This document shows, one piece after another, positions 1,462 through 29,443 of a stretch of 32,000 nucleotides of DNA (position 1 is the first letter of the stretch; each line of letters opens with the position of its first letter). The DNA comes from Nanobdella aerobiophila (lineage in GTDB: Archaea; Nanobdellota; Nanobdellia; Nanobdellales; Nanobdellaceae): NCBI RefSeq assembly GCF_023169545.1, contig NZ_AP019769.1, forward strand, positions 360,001-392,000, in the 5' to 3' direction. The position numbers were made by a program, and so were the translations under genes. The notes under the pieces were generated by a model that was given only the letters and a program-made list of their open reading frames with translations, did no database searches and had not been told where the DNA came from.

Positions 1462-1935
1462 ATGAATGAACTATTACATATAGAACAAGATAAGGACTTC
1501 CCGGACAAATTTTATGGAATAATAACCAGCATAAAAGACAATAATAATATAAATTTTTTAGATTATGAAAATAATATATATTCATATATTAATAATAAGA
1601 TGAGGTTTCCATTCTATTTTGGAATAATACCACAGACATATATAGAGGATGGCCCATTATCATTTATATTCTTCTCAGAGAATCAATATTCGATACTTAC
1701 CAAAATAAAATTAGAACCTTCATTTTTTATAAAAGTTCCGACAGGCGAGGCTGTACTAAATATAGTATTTTCTGAGGTAAATTCAAAAATAATAATAAAT
1801 AAAGATAATATAAAAAATATTTTAGAAGAATTCTTTAATGAAGAAATTTCTATAATAAATAATGCAAAAAATATATTAATAAATGCTAATAATGAATATC
1901 ATAGGAAGTATGTAAAGATTATTAAAAAATTATAG
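1462..1935 (+). CDS. Family I inorganic pyrophosphatase-like protein with a degenerate active site (probable pseudoenzyme)
   Basis: 157 aa. RFPFYFGIIPQTYIEDGPLSFIFF (aa 48-71) aligns by eye to the PPase core YP.NYGFIP.T...DGDP.DVLV. Two of the three Asp of the D-x-D-P-x-D signature are missing, as are the downstream acidic cluster residues. It converges on infB with a 6-nt overlap. Confidence 0.5.
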   Translation: MNELLHIEQDKDFPDKFYGIITSIKDNNNINFLDYENNIYSYINNKMRFPFYFGIIPQTYIEDGPLSFIFFSENQYSILTKIKLEPSFFIKVPTGEAVLNIVFSEVNSKIIINKDNIKNILEEFFNEEISIINNAKNILINANNEYHRKYVKIIKKL

Positions 1936-3705
1936 ACCCCAGGATGGATTTTCTTTTCTGAATATATTTGCAATTTCTTTCAGTATATTCTTTTGGTCCT
2001 CGTCCAATATCTCTCTATAATTTTTAAAAGTTCTATAGTCTTTTTCAGTTATATAAGTATATAAAATATCCTTCTCAAATAGATTTCGTCCTACTATAGC
2101 ATCTTCTATCGATATAGCAACCTTATCTTTTTTATACGCATAATCTAAATTTCTTTTTTCTTTCTGTATTGCTAATATCTTTCCAACAATCCTCCCACTC
2201 TGATTCATTAAATATACCTCTTTTACTATCTTTCCTTCTAATACCTCTACACCCACAATAGCAGGATTAGACCTCCTAAATACATTATTCTCTATAACAT
2301 ATATCTTGCCTATTACTGGTAATGATCCCAATATTTTTTCTTTATTAGATTTTATATCTTTTATATAATTATCTATTTTCTCTGCCAGATCATAAATTAT
2401 GTCTGATATTATTATTTTTACATTATTATTCTTTACAATATCTTCGGCATTTTTTGATATTCTAACATTAAATCCTACAATTACTGCATATTCTATATTT
2501 TTTTCCTTCATAGATAATGCTATATCAATATCATTTTTTTCTATATCGCCTATATCCGCTTTTTTTATTGGAATATTCCTTTCTTTTAATAATCTTGTTA
2601 ATACTTCTAAAGATCCCAGTGTATCTGATTTTACAACAATGCCCTCCTTATCTGTATTGAATATTATATCACTAATATCAGCTTTTAATCTATTTTCTAT
2701 ATCTTTTAATTCTTCATCTTTATTAAATACATATATAGTAGATCCTGGTAATGCATCTTCTAGATTATCTGCAACAATTCTTATACCCGCTGCTGCATAT
2801 ACCTCATTTATTTCATTAAATTTATTTTTAGCAAATCTTATATCAGTTAAATTTTGAGGCTTTAATAATGATTTTATTTTTGCATATTTAACACCATTTC
2901 TAGTTAAAAAAGCTATTTTATCACCTTTCTTTATTCTACCATCATATAAAATAATATCTATAACATCCCCAATACCTTTTTCTTCTTTTCTTTCTAATAT
3001 TACACCTATACCACTCCCCTCTACATTTATCTTTAATTTTTCTTCTAAAAATCTTTGAGATAATCCAGAAATTAATAATAATAAATCTGGTATACCCTCG
3101 CCAGTTCTAGCAGATAAGGGTATTATAGCTACCTGTTTCCTAAAATCTTTTATTCTATCATATCTATCTGAATCAAATCCGAATTCATATAGTTTAACAA
3201 CAATATTATATACATATTCGTCCAATTTAGCTTGAACTTTCTGATCTTGTTGTTTTATAGTTTCTATGAATGGTTTTTCATTATTTGGTTTCCATCCATC
3301 TATTCTATCTATTTTATTTAATGCTATTAAAAATGGTATTTTCAAATTCTTACATATTTCTATCGCTTCATAAGTTTGCTTCTGAAAACCTTCCAATATA
3401 TCTACAACGATTATAGCGAAATCAGATACAGAACCTCCTCTCTTTCTTAGATTACTAAATGCTTCATGACCAGGTGTATCAATAAATAATAAAGAAGGTA
3501 TTTTTAATTCGAATTTATATATATTTAATAATGTTTTTGATATATTTTTTATTACTTCTATTGAAACTTCTGTAGCACCTATATGTTGAGTCATTTCACC
3601 TGCTTCTTTATTTATTATCGATGTATTTCTTATCCGATCTAATAGAGATGTTTTTCCAGCATCAACATGACCTAGAACTACAATAATAGGAGACCTTATT
3701 GCCAT
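1930..3705 (-). CDS. infB: Translation initiation factor aIF5B (archaeal IF-2)
   Basis: 591 aa. GTPase G1 motif VLGHVDAGKTSLLD, G3 motif DTPGHEAF, G4 motif NKID. The length and C-terminal beta-barrel domains are typical of aIF5B. There is no intein. Confidence 0.95.
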   Translation of the reverse strand: MAIRSPIIVVLGHVDAGKTSLLDRIRNTSIINKEAGEMTQHIGATEVSIEVIKNISKTLLNIYKFELKIPSLLFIDTPGHEAFSNLRKRGGSVSDFAIIVVDILEGFQKQTYEAIEICKNLKIPFLIALNKIDRIDGWKPNNEKPFIETIKQQDQKVQAKLDEYVYNIVVKLYEFGFDSDRYDRIKDFRKQVAIIPLSARTGEGIPDLLLLISGLSQRFLEEKLKINVEGSGIGVILERKEEKGIGDVIDIILYDGRIKKGDKIAFLTRNGVKYAKIKSLLKPQNLTDIRFAKNKFNEINEVYAAAGIRIVADNLEDALPGSTIYVFNKDEELKDIENRLKADISDIIFNTDKEGIVVKSDTLGSLEVLTRLLKERNIPIKKADIGDIEKNDIDIALSMKEKNIEYAVIVGFNVRISKNAEDIVKNNNVKIIISDIIYDLAEKIDNYIKDIKSNKEKILGSLPVIGKIYVIENNVFRRSNPAIVGVEVLEGKIVKEVYLMNQSGRIVGKILAIQKEKRNLDYAYKKDKVAISIEDAIVGRNLFEKDILYTYITEKDYRTFKNYREILDEDQKNILKEIANIFRKENPSWGL

Positions 3706-3737
3706 AAATATTAATTATCATAAAATTAATTTAAAAA

Positions 3738-4484
3738 TTAAGAATATTTTTTATTTAATTCATAAACACCTATAGCTGATAAAATAACTTCAAAAATTAT
3801 TAATACAATTATATCAATATAAATCGGTATATATGATAAATTAATTAATAAATATCTTAATATATCTATACCATATGTAACAGGATCAATTAATGTAATA
3901 TAATATAATATTTTTGGAACTTCATTTAATGGATAAAATGCACCAGATAAAAACATCAATGGAAATATTAAAAAAGAAGAAATAGCACCAAAAGATTCGA
4001 AAGTATCTAATAATAATCCTACTAATAATCCTATTGATGATATAGTTAAAGATAATAAAAATACAATAGGTACAACTAATAAAAAAGAAATTATTGATAG
4101 TTTTATACCTATTAAAAATGAAAATACTAATATTATAATGCCTTCTATTGCTCCATTTGTTGCACCTCCAAATGCTTTTCCCAAAAATATTGATAATCTA
4201 GAGGCAGGAGAAACTTGAAATAATTTAAATACACCAAATTCTTTATCCCATATTAAAGATATTCCTGATGTAAGACCTATAGTCATTACTGATATACCTA
4301 CAATTCCTGGAAAAAGAAAATATATATAATTTAAACTATTTATTTTTATAAAATTGAATCCATATCCTAATATAAATAATAATAATAGGGGTTGAAATAG
4401 AGAAGAAATAAATCTTTTCTTATCTCTTATAAATTTTGTTATATCTCTTCTCCAGATCCAATATATTTGATCTAGATTTATCAT
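3738..4484 (-). CDS. ABC-2 type transporter permease
   Basis: 248 aa polytopic membrane protein, about 6 hydrophobic spans. Its start overlaps the stop of the upstream ABC ATPase by 4 nt. Confidence 0.8.
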   Translation of the reverse strand: MINLDQIYWIWRRDITKFIRDKKRFISSLFQPLLLLFILGYGFNFIKINSLNYIYFLFPGIVGISVMTIGLTSGISLIWDKEFGVFKLFQVSPASRLSIFLGKAFGGATNGAIEGIIILVFSFLIGIKLSIISFLLVVPIVFLLSLTISSIGLLVGLLLDTFESFGAISSFLIFPLMFLSGAFYPLNEVPKILYYITLIDPVTYGIDILRYLLINLSYIPIYIDIIVLIIFEVILSAIGVYELNKKYS

Positions 4485-5398
4485 CTTAATTCCCTACCTG
4501 TATAATATAAAAATACTTCTGCCAAAGTTGCTTTTCTAATATTAATGGAATCTATATTTATATTATTATTCTTTATATAATTAAATAATTCTATTAAAAA
4601 TTTTTCAGAATCTTTTACAGTAATTATATATTTATTATCTGATCTCCTTATTTCTTTAATATATTCTGAATTTATATCTATATTATTTTTTGTCTCTAAG
4701 ATTACAATATCACCTTCTAATTTCTTTTTTAAATTATCTGGTTCTCCAATAACTTTTATTTCACCTTTATCCATAATTGCAATTCTATCACATAATTCTT
4801 CTGCTTCTTCCATATAATGTGTGGTAATAAAAATAGTAATATTATAATCTTTTACTAATCTTTTAATATAATCCCATAATAAATATCTTATATCAGGATC
4901 TAAACCTGTGGTAGGTTCATCTAGAAATAATATTTTTGGATTAGATAATAAGGCTCTTGCAATTTCAACTTTTCTCTTCATACCTCCTGATAGATATCTT
5001 ACAATTTTATCTTTATAACTATCTAATTCCAAAAATTTTAAAACTTCATTTATTCTTTCTTCTCTTTTATTTTTAGGCATATTATATAAGGAAGCTCCAA
5101 GATATAAATTTTCTTTAACAGTCAATCTGTTATCAGAAGATGAATCCTGAAAAACAATACCTATTGATTTCCTAACCTCTTTTTGATCTTTTATAATATC
5201 ATAATTATTTATAATTGCAGTACCAGAAGTTGGTTTTACTAATGTAGATAATATAGATATTAATGTAGTTTTTCCGGCTCCATTTGGACCTAATAATCCA
5301 AATATTTCTCCTTTTTTAACATTAAAAGATATATTATTTAAAGCATAAAAATTATTATATTTTTTAACAATATTATTAACTTCTATAGCATAATCCAT
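4481..5398 (-). CDS. ABC transporter ATP-binding protein (ABC-2/DrrA-like exporter type)
   Basis: 305 aa. Walker A GPNGAGKTT, Q-loop FQD, signature LSGGMKRKVEIA, Walker B ILFLDEPTTGLD, H-loop TTHYMEEA. Confidence 0.9.
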   Translation of the reverse strand: MDYAIEVNNIVKKYNNFYALNNISFNVKKGEIFGLLGPNGAGKTTLISILSTLVKPTSGTAIINNYDIIKDQKEVRKSIGIVFQDSSSDNRLTVKENLYLGASLYNMPKNKREERINEVLKFLELDSYKDKIVRYLSGGMKRKVEIARALLSNPKILFLDEPTTGLDPDIRYLLWDYIKRLVKDYNITIFITTHYMEEAEELCDRIAIMDKGEIKVIGEPDNLKKKLEGDIVILETKNNIDINSEYIKEIRRSDNKYIITVKDSEKFLIELFNYIKNNNINIDSINIRKATLAEVFLYYTGRELR

Positions 5399-5470
5399 AT
5401 TAAAATATTATTATATTATTTTAAAAAAGTAAAATTTCAAAGATTAAATAATTTGTAAAAATTTAGAACC

Positions 5471-5544
5471 CGGGCCCGGGGGGTTTCGAACCCCCGACCT
5501 TCGGGTTAAAAGCCCGACGCTCTACCATGCTGAGCTACGGACCC
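5471..5544 (-). tRNA. tRNA-Lys (anticodon UUU); no intron, CCA not encoded
   Basis: The reverse complement folds as a cloverleaf: acceptor GGGUCCG/CGGGCCC, anticodon arm UCGGG-CUUUUAA-CCCGA, T arm GGGGG-UUCGAAA-CCCCC, discriminator G. It is a GC-rich island in AT-rich DNA. Confidence 0.9.
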
Positions 5545-5581
5545 ACAACTAATAATTATTATTTATATAGTACATAAACTT

Positions 5582-6361
5582 TTAAGGATGTATCCAAAAG
5601 TTATATAGACCTAAAGAACGTACTTTATTAATTGCCTCTGAATATGATTCTAATGTACCTATATCAAACCAAAAACCCTCATTATAAGTATATGTTAATA
5701 GTTCTTCTTTCTTAAATTTTAAAATCCACTCAAATAGTTTACCTATCGAATCTTTATCCTTATTATTATTTATGTATTCATATAATAAACCCAATTTTTC
5801 TTTTGGTATATAATATATTCCAATGGATATTATGGTAGATATTGGATTCTCTGGTTTTTCATAAAATTCAACTATTTTATTGTTTTCGACCTTTAAAACT
5901 CCAAATCTCTTAGCATCTTCATTATTTTTTATATCATAAGATCCTAAGATGATCTTATCATAACCGACATCTAATAATCTTTTAATATCAAAATTAAATA
6001 AATTGTCACCAAGTACAACCAATAAATCTGAATTGATTTTTTGTTTATCTATTGTATAATGTAGACCTCCTATCGCGCCCAACTTATTTTCCTGAGAATT
6101 CGAAGGTTCTATAGATAGATCTATATTTACATCACCATAAAATGCTTTTAATGTTTTTAACCAATATTTAAAATGATTTTGAAATTTTTCATTTATAGAA
6201 ATAATTATAGAATTTGGATTTAATTCTAATATTTTGTTTAGAGTATAATTTAATATTGGTACTCCCTCTAATGGAAATAAAGGCTTTGGAATATAATCTG
6301 ACAACGGTCTTAGTCTCTTTGCATAACCACCAGCTAAGATAATACAATCTAGATTGTCCAT
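5582..6361 (-). CDS. Sugar-1-phosphate nucleotidyltransferase (NTP-transferase family)
   Basis: 259 aa. The N-terminal ILAGGYAKRLRPLSDYIPKPLFPL matches the G-x-G-x-R-L nucleotide-binding signature of RmlA/GlmU-type enzymes. Confidence 0.8.
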   Translation of the reverse strand: MDNLDCIILAGGYAKRLRPLSDYIPKPLFPLEGVPILNYTLNKILELNPNSIIISINEKFQNHFKYWLKTLKAFYGDVNIDLSIEPSNSQENKLGAIGGLHYTIDKQKINSDLLVVLGDNLFNFDIKRLLDVGYDKIILGSYDIKNNEDAKRFGVLKVENNKIVEFYEKPENPISTIISIGIYYIPKEKLGLLYEYINNNKDKDSIGKLFEWILKFKKEELLTYTYNEGFWFDIGTLESYSEAINKVRSLGLYNFWIHP

Positions 6362-6370
6362 ACAGATTTT

Positions 6371-7054
6371 TTAGCTATATAAATTTATATACTCTATTGA
6401 ATTATTTACATAGCTAAAATAACCTATCGATACTGTATTAGATGATATACCAAAAGATCTCTTAGTACCTATAATTCTATCCCCATTATATAGATCTAAT
6501 AATGATAAATAATTAGATAATATTATACTATTATAAGTTGAACTTATATTTATATTTCCATTTTGATATAGATATAAATCACAAAATAATAATGACCTGT
6601 AATATATACTATATATACTAATATTATAATAATTACTACAATATATACTTCCGTCGGATAAGCTATAATTTATATTATTGTTACTAAAAATAAAAAATGA
6701 TAAGAAGGATGTTATATTGCTATTAGAACTTTCATATATATTTATATAGCTGCCGGCATTATTATAATATATTTCTACACAGTTATTGCAGACATAATAA
6801 TTAGTAGATAAAAATATAACAGAGGGTGTATATGAGTATGAAAATGGTATTCCTGTAATATTATATATTTGATTTTCATTATAATTATTAGAGAAATAAA
6901 ATGAATCTAAATACAAACCCTGAAATTTTGATATATCAGATAAATAATTAGTATAAGAATTTAGTCCACTTATAAAATCAGTAAAAACATATATAAACAG
7001 GTATATAAATATTCCCAAAGTTAGTAATACCTCAATCCAACTTTGAGATTTCAT
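6371..7054 (-). CDS. Secreted N/Y/S-rich protein with a putative class III (type IV pilin-like) signal peptide
   Basis: 227 aa. The N-terminus MKSQSWIEVLLTLGIFIYLFIYVF resembles the MK(G)Q leaders of the three archaellin-type genes in this window. It has many N-x-S/T sequons and a 4-nt overlap with the upstream platform gene. Confidence 0.45.
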   Translation of the reverse strand: MKSQSWIEVLLTLGIFIYLFIYVFTDFISGLNSYTNYLSDISKFQGLYLDSFYFSNNYNENQIYNITGIPFSYSYTPSVIFLSTNYYVCNNCVEIYYNNAGSYINIYESSNSNITSFLSFFIFSNNNINYSLSDGSIYCSNYYNISIYSIYYRSLLFCDLYLYQNGNINISSTYNSIILSNYLSLLDLYNGDRIIGTKRSFGISSNTVSIGYFSYVNNSIEYINLYS

Positions 7055-8316
7055 ATCGTTACATTAATATACTCATCTTTATTATACAATTTACCCTGAT
7101 ATCTCATCTTTGCATCAACTAGATATTCTCCCGACTGATTAAATTCTGTAGAATAAGAATAAAATCCATTATTCAATATAAATACCTGTGTACTCTGATA
7201 ATTTGTATTAATCCCTACAATTGATAATGTTACTGGAACATTATTTAGAGGATTAGAATTAGCAGAGCCATAAATCTGTATAGTTATTGGATTATATATA
7301 TATGCATTTGTAGGATATATATCTAGAGTGAAATTTACTTTAGTAGGTAATATAAATATTATAACGGCAAGTAGCCCAATAAATACATTGATAGCTAAGT
7401 GTTTCATAGAGGTGGAGAACTTTCCTGATTCCGCTATACCTGATGTTATAGAAACAGATATTCCAACTAGTATTATAGATAGCCCTGAAATAAATTTTAA
7501 CCAACCATAATTTATCGAACTGGAGAATAAACTAAAAGAACTCTTGACAGTAGCAGCAATTAGTTGACTATTTATTAAAGGCTGTATGGTATTTAATATT
7601 GATATCATTAATCCTATAAATATCACATATATACTATATAATACCATAACTTGTTGAGAGACATAAGATTTTCTTAATTTATCTAGATCTCTGCTATTTT
7701 CTAAATCAGTATATATTCTTTTTAGAGATTTTGATAGATCTCCACCACCAATATAACTTTCTAATATTACATAATTTGTCCTTCTAATATCTGGTAAATC
7801 ATAAAAATATAAATTAAATAATGTAAAAGCCTTTTCAAATGGTAGGCCCCATTTTAGCCAACTATATAGTTTTCTTACATATCTAGATAAATATCCAAAA
7901 TCTAGATTCGATGTATAATTTAATGCATCTACAATTGACAATCCAGAAGATATACTATCAGATAATTGAGATAGAAAATATGGATAATTGTCTATAATGT
8001 TTTCATTAATCTTATCTTCCATATATTTATAAGCCATATATGGAGCCCCACCTACTAAATATACAACAATAATTAGTATAGATAAAGAGATATAATTTTC
8101 ATATAATCTAAATAGCAATCCAATAGTTAATATTAATAATGATCCTATGGTAGACAAGATCAATATTAACCTACTTTCCTTTATTTCCTTCCCCAGAAAT
8201 TTTATTTTTTTATAATTTTCTGGATCTGAGATATCAGGTATAATACCTAATTTATATAATAAATTAATTGATCTACTGGGCATCTTCCTATTATAATTTA
8301 AATTAATGGTTGGCAT
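7051..8316 (-). CDS. FlaJ/TadC-like platform protein half (single T2SSF domain) fused to a C-terminal Ig-like beta-sandwich domain
   Basis: 421 aa. T2SSF-like cytosolic domain: NYPYFLSQLSDSISSGLSIVDALNYTS...ILESYIGGGDLSKSLKRIYTDLE, flanked by TM spans. The last ~95 aa (about 7054-7340) look like a sequon-bearing beta-sandwich. An alternative ATG lies at 8283 (MPSRSINLLYKLGIIP). Confidence 0.7.
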   Translation of the reverse strand: MPTINLNYNRKMPSRSINLLYKLGIIPDISDPENYKKIKFLGKEIKESRLILILSTIGSLLILTIGLLFRLYENYISLSILIIVVYLVGGAPYMAYKYMEDKINENIIDNYPYFLSQLSDSISSGLSIVDALNYTSNLDFGYLSRYVRKLYSWLKWGLPFEKAFTLFNLYFYDLPDIRRTNYVILESYIGGGDLSKSLKRIYTDLENSRDLDKLRKSYVSQQVMVLYSIYVIFIGLMISILNTIQPLINSQLIAATVKSSFSLFSSSINYGWLKFISGLSIILVGISVSITSGIAESGKFSTSMKHLAINVFIGLLAVIIFILPTKVNFTLDIYPTNAYIYNPITIQIYGSANSNPLNNVPVTLSIVGINTNYQSTQVFILNNGFYSYSTEFNQSGEYLVDAKMRYQGKLYNKDEYINVTI

Positions 8317-8351
8317 TATATTTTTATTTTACAATTTTAATATTTAAATAT

Positions 8352-9197
8352 ATGACTAATATATTATATGAATTTTTTGATGGTATAGAAAAGGATTATT
8401 TAGCATCGGGCATGAATAAAAAATTAGAAAAATATATATCAGACTCTATACAATATTCTATAGTAATTGCTATATTTATTGGAGTATTATCTTTTATCTT
8501 TATATTAATTATATCAATAAAATTAATAAAACATATAATACCTTTTCTATTTATAGCTCCAATATTCTTAGCTATACTATCCTTCGCCGGTCTATTATAT
8601 TTATTCAAGATATATCCAAAATTTTTGAAAAATGAAAGAGAAAGAAAAATAGATAACTCTTTATATTTTGCTGTATTATATATGGCTTCCTTAACATCTT
8701 CTGGTGCAAATCCTAAAGTATTATTTGATTTATTATCAAAATACAAAGATTTTTCAGAGATACAAAAAGAATCTCAAAGAATAATATATTTAGTAGATGA
8801 TATTGGATTATCATTACCTGATGCATTAAAAAATAGAATAGATTACTCCCCATCAAAAAAATGGGCTTCTATATTAGAGGGAATTAGATCTATAATTATA
8901 GAAGGTGGAGATTTAGAATCTTATTTATATCAGCAAGTAGAAAAATTATATGAAGAATATAAAAGAAAGATTATAGAATATTCTGATAACTTACAAATAT
9001 TTTTGGAGATATATATTACCTTAATTGTAGTAGGTATAATATTCTTAATAATATTAACAACACTCATGGGATCTATAGCAAATACAAGTTTTCAGTCTAT
9101 AGAATCATTACAATTGATAAGTGTACTTACTATATTACCAATGGGTACATTAATGTTTATTATATTGATAAAATCTATGAACCCATTTGAGACGTAG
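8352..9197 (+). CDS. FlaJ/TadB-like platform protein half (single T2SSF domain)
   Basis: The ORF-track start at 8310 is a TTG, so I prefer the ATG at 8352 (MTNILYEFFDG). Domain: LYFAVLYMASLTSSGANPKVLFDLL...GLSLPDALKNRIDYSPSKKW...IIIEGGDLESYLYQQVEKL, followed by TM spans. It is the only plus-strand gene in a long minus-strand run. Confidence 0.7.
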   Translation: MTNILYEFFDGIEKDYLASGMNKKLEKYISDSIQYSIVIAIFIGVLSFIFILIISIKLIKHIIPFLFIAPIFLAILSFAGLLYLFKIYPKFLKNERERKIDNSLYFAVLYMASLTSSGANPKVLFDLLSKYKDFSEIQKESQRIIYLVDDIGLSLPDALKNRIDYSPSKKWASILEGIRSIIIEGGDLESYLYQQVEKLYEEYKRKIIEYSDNLQIFLEIYITLIVVGIIFLIILTTLMGSIANTSFQSIESLQLISVLTILPMGTLMFIILIKSMNPFET

Positions 9198-9849
9198 AGA
9201 TACTAGAATTATTAGAATATAGATTAATTATAATATTGGTTATATCTTGAACATTATAAACTTTAATATTCCCGGTTTCTAATCCATATTTTATTATATT
9301 TATCAAATTTTTGTTCTTATATTTTAAATCATATAATATTTGCTGCTCTATGTTATTTGACATATATATTGTTAATGTATCATTTATATTATTTAAATAA
9401 TCTGGAGGTATATTTATAATTCCAACATTAGTAAATGTATACGCAGCACAGGAGTGGTTCAAACATAATATAAACGAATATTTTGGGTATAATATATCTA
9501 CTTTATTTTCATATAATTCATAATTGTATCTTACAATACTATCATTCTCTATATAATAATCTATTTGTTTTATAAAAGATATAGATTGATTTCCATCAGA
9601 AAAATCTATATATCTATTATTATTCAATATGCCATTTATAGATATTAAAAATAAATCATATCCAGATATATTTAACTGATAATAATCTATAACTTCTGTA
9701 TTATTTTGAGTAATATTTGCTATAAATGGAAAGTTAAATGTATATACAGGATAAAAAAATAATCTATAGAATATTGAAGACGATATAACAAGTGCAGAAA
9801 ATACTATCAAAAAAATAATAATCTTGTTTTTAATATATGACCTCCTCAA
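9175..9849 (-). CDS. Signal-anchored N/Y-rich hypothetical protein
   Basis: 224 aa. N-terminal TM IIIFLIVFSALVISSSIF, then an Asn/Tyr-rich sequon-bearing ectodomain. The track start is a TTG and no nearby in-frame ATG exists, so the exact start is uncertain. It overlaps the ndk 3' end by 20 nt, and its 3' end overlaps the convergent 8352-9197 gene by 23 nt. Confidence 0.5.
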   Translation of the reverse strand: MRRSYIKNKIIIFLIVFSALVISSSIFYRLFFYPVYTFNFPFIANITQNNTEVIDYYQLNISGYDLFLISINGILNNNRYIDFSDGNQSISFIKQIDYYIENDSIVRYNYELYENKVDILYPKYSFILCLNHSCAAYTFTNVGIINIPPDYLNNINDTLTIYMSNNIEQQILYDLKYKNKNLINIIKYGLETGNIKVYNVQDITNIIINLYSNNSSISTSQMGS

Positions 9850-10435
9850 TGTTTCTAGTATAATTATATATTTCTTCTAGCTTAAATATAACAAATATCT
9901 CTCTCATTGCATCTTTCTCATTTTCTGAAGCATGAACTACATTTCTCAATACAATCTTATTCCAGTTTGCATACGCTATAGACATATGAGCATAGTCTCC
10001 CCTTATAGTACCTGGTGGGGCTTTTAGCGGTTCTGTAGAGCCAACCAGTTTCCTTACTTCTTCTATAGAATTTACACCCTCTAATACTATAGCAACTATT
10101 GGAGCAGAAGTAATAAAATCTATAAGCCATTGCCTTATTATTTTTCCTATTTCTTTTGGATCATCAGTATTAAATTCTTTCTTTGGATCTAAGCCCATCT
10201 CTCTATATCTTGTTAAAGTCTTTGAACCAACAGTAGCTAACCAATTCTCATCAGAGTAATAAAATTCCTCCGCTGTTTTTTTATCTAGTTTTACCATCTT
10301 TAAAGCAACAATTTTTAGCCCTACCTTCTCAAATCTTGATATTATTTCTCCAATTAAACCCCTTTTTACACTATCTGGCTTTATTAAAACTAGAGTTTTT
10401 TGAACCAGATCTTTTCCACTCATTTTATTTTCCAT
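9830..10435 (-). CDS. ndk: Nucleoside diphosphate kinase (long archaeal form)
   Basis: 201 aa. [34 protein letters not shown], active-site context NVVHASEN, and an internal insertion relative to ~150-aa NDKs. Confidence 0.9.
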
Positions 10436-10601
10436 ATTTATTTGTCCATTTTAGTTCTTTGCTTGGTCTATTTAATTTCCAGTTTTTATAGCATTTATTT
10501 GAACAAAAGTAATATACCCTACCATCATTTTGTGAATATAACAAACCAGTACCAGGCTCTATTTGGTTACCACAAAATGAACAATTATTTTTAACTACCA
10601 T
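10425..10601 (-). CDS. rpl24e: 50S ribosomal protein eL24
   Basis: Not in the ORF track (58 aa). My translation is [58 protein letters not shown]. It has the C-x2-C...C-x3-C zinc ribbon and the eL24 pattern. It starts 1 nt after the eS28 stop and overlaps the ndk start. Confidence 0.85.
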
Positions 10602-10602
10602 C

Positions 10603-10896
10603 TTATTCTTTCTTTTCTATCGGCATAGCCGATATTTCAGTATCCCTTAACAATATTATATCGCCCTTCCTAATTGGACCAGTGATATTTTTTCTAATTA
10701 TCTTACCAGCATCAGGACCTTCAGCTACTCTTATTATAGCATGTATAGCTTCGCCTCTCATACCAGTTCTACCTATCAAATCTATTATCTCTCCTTTGTA
10801 TGCTTTACTCCAATTTACAGTATTTTCTTTTATAATATTATCTTCCAGATGCTTTACACCTTCTTCAGATACCTTGTTTTCTACTTTCCGTGGCAT
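10603..10896 (-). CDS. rps28e: 30S ribosomal protein eS28 with a ~30-aa N-terminal extension
   Basis: 97 aa. [53 protein letters not shown] matches the eS28 core. No internal Met is available to shorten it. Confidence 0.85.
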
Positions 10897-10950
10897 ATCA
10901 ACTTAATGTTATAAAAGGATTTTTAAATTTTTTATTAAAATTAATAAAAG

Positions 10951-18115: not shown

Positions 18116-18649
18116 TTATAAACTATTAAATATAAATCTCTTTATATTTATATAATTGTAGATAGTATAATTTCTTTTATATAATTTTAGCAAATCAAAT
18201 ATTTTATTATTACCAATATTATAATATTTTATTATATATTGTAAGAATTGGGTTAGATTAGATGGTCTTTCCTTTATTGTTGCTCTTTCCCAATCTATAA
18301 GATATATATTATCATCTTTTAATATTATATGGTAGTAAGGTCTTGTAAATTCTCTCTTTTCTATACCTAGCCGATCTAACAAAAATAATATATCTAATAA
18401 TTTTTCTAGATAGTCTATTTTTTTACTTCTATCTATATATTTAAAATATATACCATCAATATATTCCATCTCTATCTCTAAATTATTATTGTCATAACTC
18501 AATATTTTAGGAACAAAAGAATAGTTTCTTAAAAAGTTTAAGAAAAATTTTTCCTTATTGTAATTTAATAACAAATCTTTATTAAATTTTTTAATTATTG
18601 TATTTCTATCAGTTAAAAAGATATGTGAATGTTTTCCTCTAAAAATCAT
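18116..18649 (-). CDS. Small atypical protein-kinase-like protein (RIO/Bud32-related, resembling the archaeal predicted Ser/Thr kinase family)
   Basis: 177 aa. Gly-loop-like FRGKHSHIF, Lys in IIKKF, hinge EMEYIDG, then REFTRPYYHIILKDDNIYLIDWERA...PSNLTQFLQYI. The canonical HxD is replaced, and DWE stands in place of DFG. ATGA overlap with the thrS stop. Confidence 0.5.
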   Translation of the reverse strand: MIFRGKHSHIFLTDRNTIIKKFNKDLLLNYNKEKFFLNFLRNYSFVPKILSYDNNNLEIEMEYIDGIYFKYIDRSKKIDYLEKLLDILFLLDRLGIEKREFTRPYYHIILKDDNIYLIDWERATIKERPSNLTQFLQYIIKYYNIGNNKIFDLLKLYKRNYTIYNYINIKRFIFNSL

Positions 18650-20016
18650 TCAAAAATAAAATTAAAATCTTCATAAATCCTATAATTTCTTCCATTTAAA
18701 TCATACACTGGCTTTTCTAACTTATTTATTATATCATATATCTTGTTTTTATCTCCCTTTATTTCTTCAATATTCTTTGATTCCTGATTATAATATTTTA
18801 TAGTATAAATATTATCTTTAGTTTCCTTTTCTCCAATATATATAATTATAGATGGCTTGTAACTCGATTCCAGTATTCTTATCGTATTACTTAATTCAAC
18901 TTTAGATGAATTTATTATAACCGCTCTCAACTTACCATTTACGAATTCCTTATATAAATTATTTGAATATTCTTCAATACTCTTATCTTTTGCTCCGTCT
19001 CCTGTCTTTATCTTTACTACAGCTATTTGTATAGGATTCAATGTAAATGGTAACCTACCTTTAAAGGACTCTAGATATGCGCCACTAAATCTTTCTATAG
19101 ATCCTATATATGCTTTGTGTATTATATATAAATTATCTTTATCTAATGTTTCCTTTAATAGATCTAATAATCTAAAATTCCTGGGCAAATTAAAATCTAA
19201 TTGTATTGTACCAAGCTGCCATTCCTTTTCACCAATCTTTAATGTAAAATCAAACTTTGGTCCATAAAATGCGGCCTCTCCAATGCCCTCATATGTAGCA
19301 AAATTATATTTCTTCGCTAATTTATTCATTACATTTCTCATTATATTTTCTACATATTCCCAGTCTTCCTTTTTACCAGAATATTCATTCATCTTATTTG
19401 GATCATGCAGACTTAATCTAACCTTAAAATCAGACTTCTTTAGATCTATTAAGAAAACTCTATCATATAACAAAATCATTTCTTCTAATAATTTCTCGAT
19501 TTCAGACTCTAATTGTTCTGGTAATATAAATATGTGGGAGTCATCTTGTGTAAAAGATCTGACTCTTAATAGTCCATATACACTGCCTGAGGGTTCATAC
19601 CTATGTACAGTACCAAGTTCAAATATCCTAAATGGAAGTTTTAATTTTCTATATTTTTCTAGTATGTTTATAAAGATTAGTATATGATGTGGGCAATTCA
19701 TAGGTTTTATAGAAAACTGTTCTTCTTCTATATTAAATATATACATATTATCCTTGTAGTATGATAGATGTCCTGATATATTATATAATTCTGTATTTGT
19801 TATAATAGGTGTTCTTGCAATATAATAATTTCTATTTAAATAAAAGTCTGTTAATATTTGACTCAATATATTATAATATAATCCTCCTCCTAAAGAAAAT
19901 AATTGTAATCCTTTCCCAATTAAGTCTCCAAAATTTTTGTTTAAATTTGCTATCCTTCTATCATGTCTTGCCAAGATATCTAGTTCATCTCCTATATCTA
20001 TATGGTCTTTATCCAT
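18646..20016 (-). CDS. thrS: Threonyl-tRNA synthetase with catalytic and anticodon-binding domains only (no editing domain)
   Basis: 456 aa. It starts at the DH..IG.ELDL entry to the class II core. It has FSIKPMNCPHHILIF (zinc Cys), FTQDDSHIF and a C-terminal anticodon-binding fold. No TGS or editing region lies upstream. Confidence 0.9.
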   Translation of the reverse strand: MDKDHIDIGDELDILARHDRRIANLNKNFGDLIGKGLQLFSLGGGLYYNILSQILTDFYLNRNYYIARTPIITNTELYNISGHLSYYKDNMYIFNIEEEQFSIKPMNCPHHILIFINILEKYRKLKLPFRIFELGTVHRYEPSGSVYGLLRVRSFTQDDSHIFILPEQLESEIEKLLEEMILLYDRVFLIDLKKSDFKVRLSLHDPNKMNEYSGKKEDWEYVENIMRNVMNKLAKKYNFATYEGIGEAAFYGPKFDFTLKIGEKEWQLGTIQLDFNLPRNFRLLDLLKETLDKDNLYIIHKAYIGSIERFSGAYLESFKGRLPFTLNPIQIAVVKIKTGDGAKDKSIEEYSNNLYKEFVNGKLRAVIINSSKVELSNTIRILESSYKPSIIIYIGEKETKDNIYTIKYYNQESKNIEEIKGDKNKIYDIINKLEKPVYDLNGRNYRIYEDFNFIFE

Positions 20017-21236: not shown

Positions 21237-22088
21237 TCAGCTTCCTCCTAAAGATACTACAGAATCTGCCAAAACGGTAGGTATAGCACCTCCGTATTGG
21301 GCGGCATATCCATTTACTGGAGTTATTTGTAAATTATAATTTTCATCAGTAACTAATCCGGATGGTATATAATATATTAATTCGTAATTCTCTCCTGTAG
21401 TTAAATATACGCTTTCCTGATTTACTGCTAATCCAATTACTGCATATGGATCTTGTATTCCTGCTTCATTCATAGATTGCAAGAACTGGAATACCTGACT
21501 TATAGATAGTGGAACTCCAATAACTGAACTATTTATATTAATAGAACATGAAGATAAAGTATTATTTATATAACTAAAATTAATATATATATACTGATTT
21601 GATATATTTGTTAAAGTATTACATATATTTGTATTATTTATAGTAACATTTTCTACATTAACCTGATCATTGTACATAAATCCAGATATTAATATACTTC
21701 CACCCTCCAGAACACCATATATAGATGTTGGTTCATAATTTGATGGAGAGTATGAATAAACATTACCATTACTGGTGGTTAATAATGAATCTACCTCTTC
21801 TAGATTTATTGGACCAGAACCTGGCATTAATGATACAACAGGACCCATACCTGTAATTTCTTGTAGATAATTATCTAACTGTCCAGTATTTGGATTATAT
21901 TGGTATCCAAACATCTGGGTTATCTGCATTCCAGTTGTAATTCTACTTTCTGCTTGCTGTCCTGTCTGTAATGCTTTTGCTTGTAATGCACTTGCTGTAT
22001 ATATTACAACTCCTGCTGCCACTGCCGCTGTTACTATAATTGCTATTAATATTATTAATGTCGATAGACCAAACTGACCCTTTGCCAT
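21237..22088 (-). CDS. flaB: Archaellin (FlaB/ArlB family)
   Basis: 283 aa. Class III signal peptide MAKGQ followed by FGLSTLIILIAIIVTAAVAAGVVIY, then ALQAKALQTGQQAESRITTGMQI. Internal V.L.PGSGPINL and a C-terminal ITPVNG pattern are typical of archaellins. Confidence 0.8.
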   Translation of the reverse strand: MAKGQFGLSTLIILIAIIVTAAVAAGVVIYTASALQAKALQTGQQAESRITTGMQITQMFGYQYNPNTGQLDNYLQEITGMGPVVSLMPGSGPINLEEVDSLLTTSNGNVYSYSPSNYEPTSIYGVLEGGSILISGFMYNDQVNVENVTINNTNICNTLTNISNQYIYINFSYINNTLSSCSININSSVIGVPLSISQVFQFLQSMNEAGIQDPYAVIGLAVNQESVYLTTGENYELIYYIPSGLVTDENYNLQITPVNGYAAQYGGAIPTVLADSVVSLGGS

Positions 22089-24272: not shown

Positions 24273-27200
24273 TTATGAATAATACAATGCATAAATACCA
24301 AAACCGGATGGACTAAATGTATTATTTGTAGATATTATATTTCCTGAACCTCCTACTATCTTTTCTATTATATAATTACCTGTAGGTATATTTGTAAATG
24401 TAATATTAGCATTTAATGACCCTATTAATAATATTCCAGAAGCAAAGTTATATTGTATAGTATTATTTATTATTGAACTTGCAAAACTATTTGCATTATT
24501 AATAAATCCTGAACCTATATAATTTATATCAATAGTTCCTGTTGATACAGTTAAATTATTTATAGTTCCATTATTATTTATAGCTACACCTAACTGTGAA
24601 TTATAATCATATATATTTGATGCATTACCATATATATTAAGTCCGAATATTCCTCCATATGCTGTAACATTATTAATATAATTATTATTTGTTTCATATA
24701 ATCCAAATACAGATCCTACTTTTATTAAATCATTTAATATATAATTATTTCCTGATCCTAAATCTATACCAAATATATTACTATCAATATTATTATTTTC
24801 TATATAATTATTATATCCATTATTTAATTTTATACCAAATATATTACTATCAACATTATTATTATTTATCGTATTATTTATCGCATTTCCATCTAAATCT
24901 ATACCAAATATATTCGCATTAATATTATTATTATTTATTATAATATTTTCTGGATTATTATCATATATACCCCACACACTTGATTGTATATTTGAATTCT
25001 CTATTGTAGAATTCTGGAATGTACCTGTTCCATATATTGCTCCTATATTTCCATTTATTGTACTATTATATATATTTAATATTGATGGATTTTCTACTTG
25101 TATACCAAATAATCCAGAATTTATATTTGAATTATATATATTTACTGTTCCATTTGTTAATCTTAATGCAAATAAATTAGTTTGTATATTTATATTAGTT
25201 ATATTTACATTTGAAGATTCTATATTTATTACAGGTAGTCCTGGATTAGCAGGCTCAAATAGTACATTTCCAGATCCTAATAATTCTATATTTTTACCTT
25301 GTGGATTTATATTTAAATTAACTAAATATATTCCTTGAGGGAATACTACAATTGGTATATTATTATTTATTGATCCTTGTATTATATTATTTATTTGATT
25401 ATTAGTTAATGAATTATTTATTACAGTTATATTTTGTGAATTAGGAGAGAAATATATAACTTGTTCTGGAGTTATATTATATAATCCATAATTATTATAT
25501 CCATATATTCTATAATATAATTGATAATATTGTCCATTATATTTAGAATATTCTTGTAATAAACCATTATAAAATACATCATTACATTCTGTAGAACTAG
25601 ATATAGTTACCCATTGATTATTTGATTGATTCAAGAATTGTATATTACAATAATCTATACCTTCTGTATTATCATATACATTTCCATATATTTGTAATAA
25701 CCATAGATTACTTATATATCCATTACTTGGAGTTGGAGATGTATATGATACATTAAATACAGGTTCAGGTAATTGATAGATATATATTCCTGTACTATTT
25801 ACAATATTATTATAAGATTCTGTAGATAATTCTATGCTAATATTTCCTCCATTTGGTATAATATTATATAATGAAGGTAGTCCATTTGATGAATTATTAT
25901 ATCTTAAATATATATTATTTATTCCTGGAGTTACATTTATATTATATTTATTTCCATTAATTGTTATATTTACATTTGGATAATTTGTATAGAATGTTAA
26001 ATTTAATCCATAATAATTACTTTTAGTATTATTATTTGGAGATATAATATATATAATAGGATATGGATATACATTTAATGTAAATATTGAAATATTTGAT
26101 AGTCCTGTTACTTGGTCTATTCCTAAAAATGTTATATTGTATTGTTGATAACTATTTACATTCGGAGCAGTTATTGTAAATATTTGACTTCCTCCAGAAG
26201 TAATATTAACTTCTGCTGGAGAGCATGTAACACTTGATGGAGACAAACATCTTAGTGTTAAATTATTTCCTAAATTATCTGTTCCAGATACTTGTATAGA
26301 TATTGACTGTCCTGAATTTAAATTTCCAGATGTCTGATTAAGTGCTATATTTATATTTTCTATCACTACTGTAACATTTACTTGTGTTTTATTTGTTACT
26401 ATATCTGTTGCAGTAACATTTATTATATACAATCCTTGAGATGCTGAACTTGGTACAGATATATCTAAACTTGTAGAACCTCCTGAAGGGATTATTACAC
26501 TATTTTGCCCACTAAAGGAGCATGATAATGGGGAAGGACAAGAAGCACTTATATTTAAATTATCTCCATAATTATCTGAAGCTGTTATAATAGTTGAACT
26601 ATTTGAACCTGGTGATAAAGTAATAGAGGATGGATTAGAGCTTACATTAATTAATTCTTGTGGAACATTTACCGTTATTGTTGTAGAATTTGTTGCATTA
26701 TTCTCAGATATTCCATTTATTGTCACTGTATAAGTACCCGGTGTTATTGATGTTGTTGAATTTATATATAATGTTACTGTTGTATTTGGAGTTGCTGTAT
26801 TATTTGAAAGATAACATCCTAAATTAGTATTTGAAGTTGAACAAGACAAATTTACTGGTAAAGGTGTATTTCCAGTTAGTTGAGTTAATTGTATATTATC
26901 TGTTATTGTTTTACCTGGTATTTCGGTAATTAGATTACTAGAAGGTATCAATTCGAATGTAAATACTGGAAAAGCATATACAAATACTGAAGCATAGTTT
27001 GTTGTACCTGGTCCACCAACATTTGCATCAAAAGTAAAAGAATAGGATCCTGGAGCTAAATCTTGACATCCCGCAGCATATACTGCATTATTAGGATTAT
27101 TAGCAGGACCTGCTTCTTCATAATTTATTTCTGAACACCCAGCAGGTAAAGTTACAGTAGTTATACCAGCCTGTCCATTATTACTTCCAGCAGCTAATAA

Positions 27201-27671
27201 TATAAATACAGTTTCATTTTGTCCATTTACATTAAAAGATACAGATTGTGTAGCACTTTTTCTAAAATTAAATGTTAAATTATCTAATATTAGATATTGA
27301 GAATAATTATTTATAGTTAATCCAATTAATGCATTATTTCCATTTCCTGCTGGACCTCCTCGATTAAATGTATATGAACATGAATTTTGTGTATTATTAC
27401 CTATAACTGAATATCCACTATTATCTACTAATATATTAAAGTATGGAACTATAGTACTTCCACCATTTACAGAAGCTGTACAATAATATAGATTTCCTAA
27501 AGGTAAATTAACACTCACTGAATTAGATCCTGGTCCAGGGTTTGCATTTGTTCCATTATATCCAACTAATGTTGCTCCTACGGCAGAGAATACACTATTT
27601 ACAGAAAAAATAGAGAGTATAGATAAAATAACTAGTATATATATTTTTTTTATTAAGAATTTATATACCAT
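24273..27671 (-). CDS. Large secreted surface protein: Sec signal, unknown N-terminal domain, three Cys-pair Ig-like repeats, beta-sandwich region, right-handed parallel beta-helix (PbH1-type) region; no recognisable membrane anchor
   Basis: 1132 aa. Signal MVYKFLIKKIYILVILSILSIFSVNSVFSA. About 100-aa repeats each carry a Cys pair (LSCSTSNTNLGCY, ASCPSPLSCSF, LRCLSPSSVTCSP). 22-23-aa coils carry NIFGI(D/K)L and G(I/L)FG motifs between about aa 765 and 1010. I hand-counted about 47 N-x-S/T sequons. Confidence 0.8.
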   Translation of the reverse strand: MVYKFLIKKIYILVILSILSIFSVNSVFSAVGATLVGYNGTNANPGPGSNSVSVNLPLGNLYYCTASVNGGSTIVPYFNILVDNSGYSVIGNNTQNSCSYTFNRGGPAGNGNNALIGLTINNYSQYLILDNLTFNFRKSATQSVSFNVNGQNETVFILLAAGSNNGQAGITTVTLPAGCSEINYEEAGPANNPNNAVYAAGCQDLAPGSYSFTFDANVGGPGTTNYASVFVYAFPVFTFELIPSSNLITEIPGKTITDNIQLTQLTGNTPLPVNLSCSTSNTNLGCYLSNNTATPNTTVTLYINSTTSITPGTYTVTINGISENNATNSTTITVNVPQELINVSSNPSSITLSPGSNSSTIITASDNYGDNLNISASCPSPLSCSFSGQNSVIIPSGGSTSLDISVPSSASQGLYIINVTATDIVTNKTQVNVTVVIENINIALNQTSGNLNSGQSISIQVSGTDNLGNNLTLRCLSPSSVTCSPAEVNITSGGSQIFTITAPNVNSYQQYNITFLGIDQVTGLSNISIFTLNVYPYPIIYIISPNNNTKSNYYGLNLTFYTNYPNVNITINGNKYNINVTPGINNIYLRYNNSSNGLPSLYNIIPNGGNISIELSTESYNNIVNSTGIYIYQLPEPVFNVSYTSPTPSNGYISNLWLLQIYGNVYDNTEGIDYCNIQFLNQSNNQWVTISSSTECNDVFYNGLLQEYSKYNGQYYQLYYRIYGYNNYGLYNITPEQVIYFSPNSQNITVINNSLTNNQINNIIQGSINNNIPIVVFPQGIYLVNLNINPQGKNIELLGSGNVLFEPANPGLPVINIESSNVNITNINIQTNLFALRLTNGTVNIYNSNINSGLFGIQVENPSILNIYNSTINGNIGAIYGTGTFQNSTIENSNIQSSVWGIYDNNPENIIINNNNINANIFGIDLDGNAINNTINNNNVDSNIFGIKLNNGYNNYIENNNIDSNIFGIDLGSGNNYILNDLIKVGSVFGLYETNNNYINNVTAYGGIFGLNIYGNASNIYDYNSQLGVAINNNGTINNLTVSTGTIDINYIGSGFINNANSFASSIINNTIQYNFASGILLIGSLNANITFTNIPTGNYIIEKIVGGSGNIISTNNTFSPSGFGIYALYYS
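24759..24932 (-). repeat. Intragenic tandem repeat (66/69-nt period) encoding consecutive beta-helix coils
   Basis: The plus-strand core TATACCAAATATATTACTATCAA(T/C)ATTATTATT occurs at 24765 and 24831 with 1 mismatch. A more diverged copy lies at 24900. CTAAATCTATACCAAATATATT is identical before copies 1 and 3. Confidence 0.7.
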
Positions 27672-29390: not shown

Positions 29391-29443
29391 TATATATTAT
29401 AAATTATGATATATTTTTAAAAATATATAACATTGTTATATAT

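Follow-up and report, generated by a model that had tools for sequence, protein, structure and literature searches.

The archaellum platform, ArlJ/FlaJ (arCOG01809; NF004704/NF004705), unites two T2SSF domains in one polypeptide with approximately 9–10 transmembrane (TM) segments and lacks an Ig-like tail. Tad TadB/TadC and archaeal Epd-like platforms are instead encoded by two adjacent genes carrying one T2SSF domain each, an N half and a C half (Denise et al. 2019, PMC6668835; system 1/4A/4B in the preprint of Sivabalasarma & Albers 2026), and both studies describe two-gene platforms that arose by fission. The closest described genes are the pairs Nps_01915/Nps_01920 of Candidatus Nanopusillus acidilobi, with 5 and 4 TM segments, and Nst1_571/Nst1_572 of Nanobsidianus stetteri (Nst1), all annotated as "Flp pilus assembly protein TadC", arCOG01808 (Wurch et al. 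2016, PMC4935971). According to the same source, N. acidilobi also has a second TadC pair (5 TM + 4 TM) beside an ATPase and a separate FlaJ, Nps_02340, with 10 TM segments (arCOG01809), and neither of the TadC orthologs Nps_01915 and Nps_01920 was detected in its proteome. A separate full-length FlaJ of 549 aa (arCOG01809) is likewise present in Nst1. The published tables carry no comment on divergent orientation, an Ig-like tail or the prepilin nature of the adjacent gene Nps_01910; one member of the set of six TadC genes was not found in them, nor was a prepilin peptidase (Wurch et al. 2016, PMC4935971).

We analysed a homologous locus of Nanobdella aerobiophila that lies in a 32-kb stretch of the genome, hereafter the window. 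Its two platform genes, an N-type and a C-type half, are the orthologs of Nps_01920 and Nps_01915, respectively. The N. acidilobi and Nst1 pairs are direct orthologs of them at 54–61% identity, and share their 5-TM/4-TM architecture, head-to-head layout and flanking genes (a prepilin-like gene on one side; a 1-TM protein, NDK, L24e and S28e on the other), and nothing material differs between them and the Nanobdella pair. The two-gene arrangement is old, conserved and already annotated in relatives, rather than a freshly broken archaellum gene. Very probably, the pair encodes the heterodimeric platform, and its neighbouring prepilin-like gene the pilin, of a type IV pilus of the arCOG01808 "TadC" kind that is distinct from the archaellum and served by an ATPase in trans. 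A TadB/TadC-like two-protein platform had been the closing alternative of a first-pass annotation of this DNA, and that alternative proves essentially correct; the likeness to TadB/TadC and Epd is one of shared architecture and does not imply direct orthology to EpdJ/EpdK or TadB/TadC.

Domain content and layout of the platform genes

Pfam searches returned one PF00482 (T2SSF) match per protein, both above the gathering score (52.5 and 46.4 bits for the two proteins against a cut-off of 25.2). The N-type half (8352–9197, plus strand) encodes 281 aa with four TM segments, one cytoplasmic T2SSF domain (E = 4.9e-12) and both termini inside, and the C-type half (7051–8316, minus strand, stop codon included) encodes 421 aa with five TM segments and one cytoplasmic T2SSF domain (aa 114–241, E = 6.2e-14), all TM counts and topologies being hydropathy predictions. 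The sum of the two counts, 4 + 5, matches the 9–10 TM segments of ArlJ. Aligned to NCBIfam model NF004704 (ArlJ, 555 positions), the plus-strand protein spans 12–248 and the minus-strand protein 269–544. When the two profiles were run by hmmsearch against true two-domain relatives, the N-type profile fell on the first half in every case and the C-type profile on the second. By hhalign, the C-type half aligned to residues 298–569 of a 575-aa FlaJ-like protein with 99.5% probability; the N-type alignment gave nothing useful against a single 575-aa FlaJ-like sequence, P0069 (probability 2.9%), and only a very weak match to the C-type profile (E = 0.095). The assignment of the halves rests on the NCBIfam model coordinates and on the hmmsearch of two-domain proteins.

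Between them, these two separate genes, with one T2SSF domain each, make up the equivalent of a two-domain platform protein, one matching its N half and the other its C half. The N-type half is TadC-like by the alignment of Denise et al. (PMC6668835), and the C-type half is TadB-like. ArlJ is homologous over both halves and is their best named NCBIfam match, but each protein has a single T2SSF domain and the best scores against the ArlJ equivalog models (NF004703-5), 89.7 and 44.8 bits, fall far short of the required 550 and 400. NCBIfam may lack a model for the archaeal two-gene (Epd-type) platform.

The two genes stand head-to-head with their 5' ends 35 nt apart (ATG 8352 on the plus strand, ATG 8316 on the minus strand), and the N-type gene is the sole plus-strand gene within a minus-strand run from 1930 to 10896. 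Ortholog alignments favour ATG 8316 for the C-type gene and, for the N-type gene, ATG 8352 over TTG 8310; the latter start, with which the genes would overlap, was ruled out by ortholog N-termini and spacer conservation. The intergenic spacer (8317–8351, 35 nt) holds two conserved AT-rich boxes, at approximately 8317–8330 and 8339–8350, each about 28 nt upstream of the opposite gene's ATG, and the second of these is a palindrome, ATATTTAAATAT. Six orthologous spacers of 35–38 nt retain both boxes but vary in the middle. The motif TTTA[AT]A precedes many genes of the window, beginning at -27 to -32 from the ATG, that of the C-type gene at -32. The boxes are putative promoters, back-to-back TATA boxes that would drive leaderless divergent mRNAs. 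Short divergent promoter regions are common in the N. aerobiophila genome.

The C-type half ends in an Ig-like beta-sandwich (residues 327–421; 7054–7338, minus strand) with sequons N328, N393 and N418. The AlphaFold2 model of the whole protein has a mean pLDDT of 81, and residues 327–420 form an eight-stranded beta-sandwich with a block pLDDT of 83–91. Foldseek related this domain to macroglobulin (MG), PKD and FN3-like domains; 2p9r was the top match of domain size (target-normalised TM-score 0.74). The whole-model run was swamped by spurious long helical matches, and only domain-sized matches to the beta-sandwich are meaningful. The five-TM hydropathy topology places the domain, with its three sequons in or at it, outside the cell. 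The domain is kept across the C-type orthologs of the family, and a similar tail is found on the C-type partners of outgroup loci L009 and L028, with a weak CarboxypepD_reg match in L028; the tail is therefore not unique to the Nanobdella lineage. The first-pass annotation had described one T2SSF gene per strand, facing each other in complementary halves, a lone plus-strand gene in the 1930–10896 run and an extracellular Ig-like domain, and the Pfam, NCBIfam, AlphaFold2, Foldseek and topology results bear out this description.

Conservation within the family and in outgroup loci

Sixteen orthologs of the N-type half share 42–63% identity with 50 invariant columns, and C-type orthologs share 38–58%. 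Across these alignments (38–63% identity) many columns are invariant and no frameshift was found in either platform gene. The head-to-head pair with its downstream prepilin gene is present in 14 of 15 named genomes, the remaining locus (L023) ending at a contig end, as well as in three metagenome lineages and in L028. A genome-collection scan with a family-level N-type alignment returned family members only.

The comparison was extended beyond the family by searching 1.84 billion representative proteins with a profile. The best non-family matches were mostly single-domain proteins of 280–300 aa (E from 1e-80 to 1e-40), and two-domain proteins appeared only from approximately 1e-37. The outgroup loci L009, L011, L028 and L029 are archaeal. 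Locus L009 contains pilins, a 529-aa T2SSE ATPase, the N-type gene, the C-type gene and small proteins, all co-directional; L029 has an ATPase, the N-type gene, the C-type gene and then a prepilin gene; and L011 has the N-type gene, the C-type gene and then a gene for a 203-aa protein. The platform genes of L009 and L029 adjoin the ATPase gene in tandem, whereas the Nanobdella pair is contiguous but divergent. The L009 ATPase scored higher against Archaeoglobus fulgidus GspE (2OAP, 427 bits) than against FlaI (4II7, 329 bits).

Because the nearest non-family relatives are single-domain proteins of about 290 aa, which in two loci are encoded in tandem next to an ATPase gene, the fission predates the Nanobdella lineage. 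It had been proposed in the first-pass annotation that half of an ancestral flaJ was inverted in place, a model for which an uninverted single gene was to be sought in related loci. The outgroup loci L009, L011 and L029 show two tandem genes instead, and N. acidilobi has a second TadC pair beside an ATPase; two genes therefore pre-existed, and it was a whole gene that was inverted. Only the inverted N-type gene and the severed link to the ATPase are specific to this lineage, and both are fixed in all 15 named relatives, from Nanopusillus to Nanoclepta. Nor is the pair likely to be the archaellum FlaJ, as Nst1 and N. acidilobi possess a separate full-length FlaJ (549 aa and 10 TM, respectively) besides the orthologous pair; a full-length two-domain flaJ elsewhere in the genome was one half of an observation that the first-pass annotation had named as decisive against its model. 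ArlBHIJ genes have been reported for N. aerobiophila MJ1, and an intact arlJ is expected elsewhere in its genome, the separate ArlJ having been seen in the sister genomes rather than in N. aerobiophila itself.

Neighbouring genes and the ATPase

Downstream of the C-type gene lies a gene for a 227-aa protein (6371–7054, minus strand), whose start overlaps the C-type stop by 4 nt. The protein carries a class III signal peptide, MKS/QSWIEVLL (slash, cleavage position), in which E occupies position +5, and it has four conserved cysteines and six sequons. As in pilins, the short basic leader has [KR][GAS] as its last two residues and precedes a roughly 20-residue hydrophobic helix. The N-terminal consensus M[KR][GS]/[QI]SWIE[FV]L is found in 14 of 15 orthologs from genome loci, the exception (L015) reading QHWIE, and two metagenome loci have D (L003) or A (L007) at -1. 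A prepilin-like gene also follows the C-type gene in outgroup loci L029 (MKG/QFTIEF) and L028 (MRG/QIETI). The AlphaFold2 model, of low confidence (pLDDT 56), shows a helix over residues 6–56 and then a beta domain. The conserved N-terminus across orthologs agrees with the prepilin-like character proposed on first reading, and the product is a putative pilin or priming minor pilin, its cleavage and entry into a filament being predicted from this N-terminus.

On the other side of the pair, a gene for a signal-anchored, sequon-rich protein of 224 aa (9175–9849, minus strand; nine sequons) is the last of an S28e-L24e-NDK transcription unit that converges on the N-type gene. A single N-terminal TM segment is predicted, in keeping with the signal anchor assigned earlier; the protein lacks a class III cleavage motif, and neither Pfam nor NCBIfam returned a match. 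The gene keeps its position in nearly all family loci examined, at 24–54% identity, and is absent from that position in L005/L006, L026 and every outgroup locus examined. The 224-aa protein is at most a candidate member of the pilus system. Neither it nor the 227-aa protein has a credible Pfam or NCBIfam family, the matches lying far below curated cut-offs.

A tblastn search with a related ATPase as query found no secretion ATPase in the 32-kb window, as the first-pass annotation had stated, and no T2SSE ATPase lies within 7–10 kb of the platform pair in any family locus. Pfam searches over most main ORFs of the window, a set that excludes the 1930–3705 gene, showed neither FlaH nor a prepilin peptidase. 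N. acidilobi has an orphan arCOG01817 ATPase, Nps_01175/Nst1_088 (Wurch et al. 2016, PMC4935971). By exclusion from the published gene table, we infer that the ATPase partner of the pair is the ortholog of Nps_01175/Nst1_088.

A divergent pair as the probable platform of a type IV pilus

Very probably, the locus arose as follows. The two-gene state was inherited, a gene for a two-domain platform having split long ago, as it did in Epd and Tad systems; the N-type gene was flipped in nanoarchaea ranging from Nanopusillus to Nanoclepta and in one further relative; and the locus lost its ATPase linkage during the general operon break-up of these reduced genomes. Transcription would run divergently, probably as leaderless mRNAs, from the two back-to-back TATA-like boxes in the 35-nt spacer, with the prepilin-like gene probably co-transcribed with the C-type gene. 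Both platform proteins would assemble in the membrane as a pseudo-twofold 2xT2SSF platform, presumably by dimerisation, and their cytoplasmic helical domains would dock a hexameric VirB11/PilB-type ATPase encoded elsewhere. The 227-aa protein would be cleaved by a prepilin peptidase after K-[S/G] and incorporated at the platform as a pilin or priming minor pilin. By homology with known systems, such a heteromeric platform would bind the ATPase and support pilus assembly.

Tad/Epd-like pilins and the 227-aa protein share a short leader and Glu at +5. In contrast to Tad/Epd loci, where the genes are in tandem and followed by the ATPase, the Nanobdella pair is divergent and its ATPase unlinked; its C-type half has an extra extracellular Ig-like domain, and its prepilin-like protein is large (approximately 225 aa) compared with the short Flp/Epd pilins. 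The N-terminus of Nps_01910, the prepilin-like ortholog, is truncated in the gene call used.

Cryo-ET of N. aerobiophila revealed a second appendage, rough-surfaced and approximately 15 nm wide. That the pair and its large, glycosylated, Glu+5 prepilin build this appendage or another host-contact filament, with the ATPase in trans and the Ig-like ectodomain contacting the S-layer or the filament base, is a speculative and on balance unlikely extension; if true, it would assign genes to a symbiosis-related surface structure of nanoarchaea. The platform pair and the prepilin gene are candidates for the second filament.

It is improbable that the pair is a functional platform shared among ATPase and pilin sets in trans, or one serving a non-pilus host-attachment structure with the ectodomain in cell-surface contact. 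Either reading would accord with the case made for archaeal ATPase/TadC modules that can use pilins encoded in trans (Makarova 2016), with the high density of non-synonymous SNPs in a FlaJ/TadC homologue in Nanoarchaeota populations and with the second, approximately 15-nm-wide appendage; however, no direct link connects the platform genes with any structure, and a dedicated prepilin gene is probably co-transcribed with the C-type gene and therefore favours an ordinary dedicated pilus.

A decaying or functionless orphan platform, left over when genome reduction removed the ATPase and pilin genes, is quite improbable. In its favour, no ATPase is linked to the pair in any family member, the genome is highly reduced, and proteomics of N. 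acidilobi did not detect the orthologs; proteome surveys often miss polytopic membrane proteins. Against decay, the platform genes, the boxes between them and the prepilin gene downstream all remain intact and are conserved in lineages only 38–47% identical to the window proteins. The genomes concerned measure approximately 0.6–0.8 Mb, a size at which useless genes are normally purged, and N. acidilobi has an orphan ATPase of the matching arCOG.

Least probable of all is an archaellum ArlJ/FlaJ recently split by in-place inversion of its N half, with FlaI and FlaH elsewhere: a single inversion fits the geometry (N half at higher coordinates, 5' ends facing), ArlJ is the best named family for both halves with complementary coverage, three archaellin genes lie inside the same 32-kb window and split genes are a known trait of Nanoarchaeota, but the nearest outgroup relatives are already two tandem genes, sister genomes with the orthologous arCOG01808 pair also carry a full-length FlaJ (549 aa / 10 TM, arCOG01809), the ArlJ model scores of the halves are 45–90 bits against cut-offs of 400–550, and the published list of Nst1 split genes does not include FlaJ. 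This corrects the reading of a locus that could pass for a freshly fissioned archaellum gene and serve as evidence of ongoing gene splitting in Nanoarchaeota.

Read as the platform of a non-archaellar type IV pilus, the pair is a clean example of a platform pair turned divergent by inversion and no longer linked to its ATPase. As the flipped, unlinked pair is still conserved across a whole family of reduced genomes, it supports the view that archaeal platform, ATPase and pilin modules can work in trans. The downstream gene, annotated as hypothetical, can now be recognised as a putative prepilin gene.

Two halves of a platform protein

With a G+C content of about 25%, the window carries archaeal genes whose closest protein matches all lie in Nanopusillaceae/Nanoarchaeota. 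The reading frames named in the first-pass annotation are present as described, and the single T2SSF domain it ascribed to each of two head-to-head genes was recovered: the proteins encoded at 7051-8316 (minus strand, 421 aa) and 8352-9197 (plus strand, 281 aa) each contain exactly one, above the Pfam gathering score. On the 555-position NCBIfam ArlJ model, the plus-strand protein spans positions 12-248 and the minus-strand protein 269-544, and this complementary coverage identifies them as N-type and C-type halves, respectively. Profiles of the family, comprising the orthologous head-to-head pairs from Nanopusillus to Nanoclepta, gave the same correspondence in every true two-domain relative examined, with the N-type profile matching the first half and the C-type profile the second. 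In hhalign, the C-type family aligned to residues 298-569 of a 575-aa FlaJ-like protein with 99.5% probability.

Both halves are well conserved. N-type orthologs are about 282 aa long, with 42-63% identity and 50 invariant columns; C-type orthologs are about 390-421 aa long, with 38-58% identity and 54 invariant columns, and neither ortholog alignment shows any sign of decay. Within the species-representative collection, the head-to-head layout is present in 15 named genomes, including YN1, Nanopusillus spp., N. acidilobi, Nanobsidianus stetteri Nst1, MC-1 and Nanoclepta minutus; it also occurs in three metagenome lineages and at the closest outgroup match, locus L028. Wherever the contig reaches, a co-directional gene of ~228 aa lies downstream of the C-type gene, the sole exception being a locus that ends at the contig edge (L023).

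Across six orthologous loci, the spacer between the two genes is always 35-38 nt long and consists of a conserved AT-rich box at either end and a variable centre, with the ATG of the opposite gene some 28 nt downstream of each box. Many genes of the window, the C-type gene included, carry an upstream TTTA[AT]A motif that starts at -27 to -32 relative to the ATG. Together with the position of the spacer boxes, this suggests that they are back-to-back TATA boxes for leaderless divergent transcripts. Two further divergent pairs, S28e/AglB-like (spacer 10897-10950) and 80-aa ORF/SufB (spacer 29391-29443), are separated by ~53-54 nt, with TTTA[AT]A beginning about 28-31 nt before every ATG; such compact promoter geometry between divergent genes thus looks routine in the Nanobdella genome.

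Hydropathy analysis predicted four TM segments in the N-type half and placed both of its termini inside the cell; for the C-type half it predicted five, placing the N-terminus inside but the C-terminal domain outside. These counts equal those published for the N. acidilobi orthologs. An AlphaFold2 model of the C-type half, built from a 13-sequence alignment (mean pLDDT 81), folds residues 327-420 into an eight-strand beta-sandwich, in or at which three sequons lie. Domain-sized Foldseek matches were macroglobulin, PKD and FN3-like domains (e.g., 2p9r, target-normalised TM-score 0.74), so the proposed Ig-like ectodomain is borne out in its general fold and predicted location. The tail is not peculiar to this lineage: C-type partners at outgroup loci L009 and L028 carry a similar terminal beta domain, L028 also giving a weak CarboxypepD_reg match, and the partner at outgroup locus L029 is without one.

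Origin of the divergent pair

The first-pass annotation attributed the pair to an in-place inversion that split flaJ, with a TadB/TadC-like two-protein platform as its fallback. Gene fission does have a place in the history of such proteins: TadB/TadC and Epd-like platforms have one T2SSF domain each, and fission of a two-domain gene, with products aligning to its N half and C half, has been given as the explanation (Denise et al. 2019, PMC6668835). A freshly split flaJ was nevertheless rejected, because the nearest relatives outside the family are single-domain genes in tandem. In a search of 1.84 billion representative proteins with the N-type profile, the best non-family matches were mostly single-domain proteins of 280-300 aa (E 1e-80 to 1e-40), and two-domain proteins first appeared at about 1e-37. 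Outgroup locus L009 encodes, on one strand throughout, pilin genes, a 529-aa T2SSE ATPase, N-type (284 aa) and C-type (360 aa) proteins and small membrane proteins; L029 has an ATPase, N-type and C-type genes and then a prepilin starting MKG/QFTIEF (slash between positions -1 and +1); and L011 has N-type and C-type genes followed by a 203-aa protein. These tandem arrangements argue that the two-gene tandem state is ancestral, so that the two genes predate the flip and the only derived traits would be a whole-gene inversion and separation from the ATPase.

The published record agrees. The direct N. acidilobi orthologs, Nps_01915 (5 TM) and Nps_01920 (4 TM), are listed as "Flp pilus assembly protein TadC", arCOG01808, and equal Nst1_571/572 (Wurch et al. 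2016 and its supplementary table, PMC4935971). The annotation had itself named a full-length two-domain flaJ elsewhere, together with silence of the pair, as contrary to a split; the former exists, in sister genomes. N. acidilobi has a separate FlaJ, Nps_02340 (10 TM, arCOG01809), with FlaI/FlaH listed too (Wurch et al. 2016, PMC4935971), Nst1 FlaJ is 549 aa long (Makarova et al. 2016 table), and FlaJ is not among the published Nst1 split genes. Two-gene platforms are known from several archaeal systems, DPANN among them (Makarova et al. 2016; Sivabalasarma & Albers 2026 preprint).

Taken together, these results support the TadB/TadC-like reading: the locus is a further example of known two-gene pilus platforms, with the divergent orientation, unlinked ATPase and Ig-like tail as minor peculiarities. 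The first two hold family-wide, and the tail is found across the family members examined.

Neighbouring genes and a proposed ATPase partner

The 227-aa gene (6371-7054, minus strand) and the C-type gene share 4 nt. Among its 15 orthologs extracted from genome loci, 14 share the N-terminus M[KR][SG]/[QI]SWIE[FV]L, the other (L015) having QHWIE; in metagenome loci, position -1 is D in L003 and A in L007. This N-terminus is a predicted short class III (prepilin-type) leader with Glu at +5, in line with the prepilin-like neighbour first proposed. Four cysteines are conserved in the protein, which is also rich in sequons, and its weak structure model (pLDDT 56) comprises a long N-terminal helix and then a beta domain. 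At outgroup loci L028 and L029, the C-type gene is likewise followed by a prepilin-like gene. The N. acidilobi ortholog is called as 206 aa (L002 11320-11940, CP010514.1), and its reading frame reaches upstream to the conserved MKSQSWIEV start, giving 228 aa (L018 5026-5712); the gene call thus starts too far downstream and hides the class III signal peptide.

The signal-anchored, sequon-rich 224-aa protein (9175-9849, minus strand), whose gene converges on the N-type gene, is encoded at the end of an S28e-L24e-NDK unit, a position kept in most family loci only. It contains no prepilin motif and was not assigned to the pilus system.

The L009 ATPase scored 427 bits against A. fulgidus GspE (2OAP) and 329 bits against FlaI, which points to a non-archaellar pilus system. 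As first noted, no ATPase is nearby: tblastn with this protein gave no match anywhere in the window, nor in the 7-10 kb around the pair at any family locus. In N. acidilobi, a second TadC pair (5 TM + 4 TM) adjoins an ATPase, another TadC lies beside an ATPase, and one arCOG01817 ATPase, Nps_01175, is an orphan (Wurch et al. 2016, PMC4935971). By exclusion, the ortholog of this remaining unpartnered ATPase is proposed as the partner, tentatively because one of six TadC genes in the N. acidilobi table was not located. A link between the pair and the 15-nm appendage of N. aerobiophila is speculative. At L028, a ParA/MinD-family ATPase gene (6167-6934 of that locus, 255 aa) lies about 190 nt past the N-type gene's 3' end; for T4P systems of the euryarchaeal type, FleN/MinD ATPases have been proposed as accessory components.

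Archaellins and other genes of the window

Three archaellins, whose leaders are MKGQ or MAKGQ, are encoded at 21237-22088, 27773-28390 and 28392-28982, all on the minus strand; the 205-aa archaellin scores 25.3 bits, below the Pfam gathering score of 29.5. None of their genes adjoins arlI, arlH or arlJ, an example of how archaellum genes are scattered in this lineage. Between the archaellin genes, 24273-27671 (minus strand) encodes a secreted, N-, S- and T-rich 1132-aa protein with many sequons, whose C-terminal half contains repeats such as NINIxxNxFGI, resembling a parallel beta-helix. It has no match in Pfam or NCBIfam and resembles the pectin-lyase-like surface proteins of N. aerobiophila (MJ1_0451 class); at 21-29 kb, the succession of an archaellin, a pectin-lyase-like protein and another archaellin is similar to MJ1_0449/0451/0453 in strain MJ1.

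The minus-strand segment 20039-20898 encodes the catalytic subunit of a tRNA-intron endonuclease (141 aa, PF01974) and, next to it and overlapping its gene by 16 nt, an ORF of 149 aa with no Pfam match. This ORF may encode the structural subunit of a splicing endonuclease that is heteromeric. The 456-aa class II aminoacyl-tRNA synthetase at 18646-20016 (minus strand) has the catalytic core domain (PF00587) only and may represent a truncated or split enzyme, forms that are common in Nanoarchaeota and Crenarchaeota.
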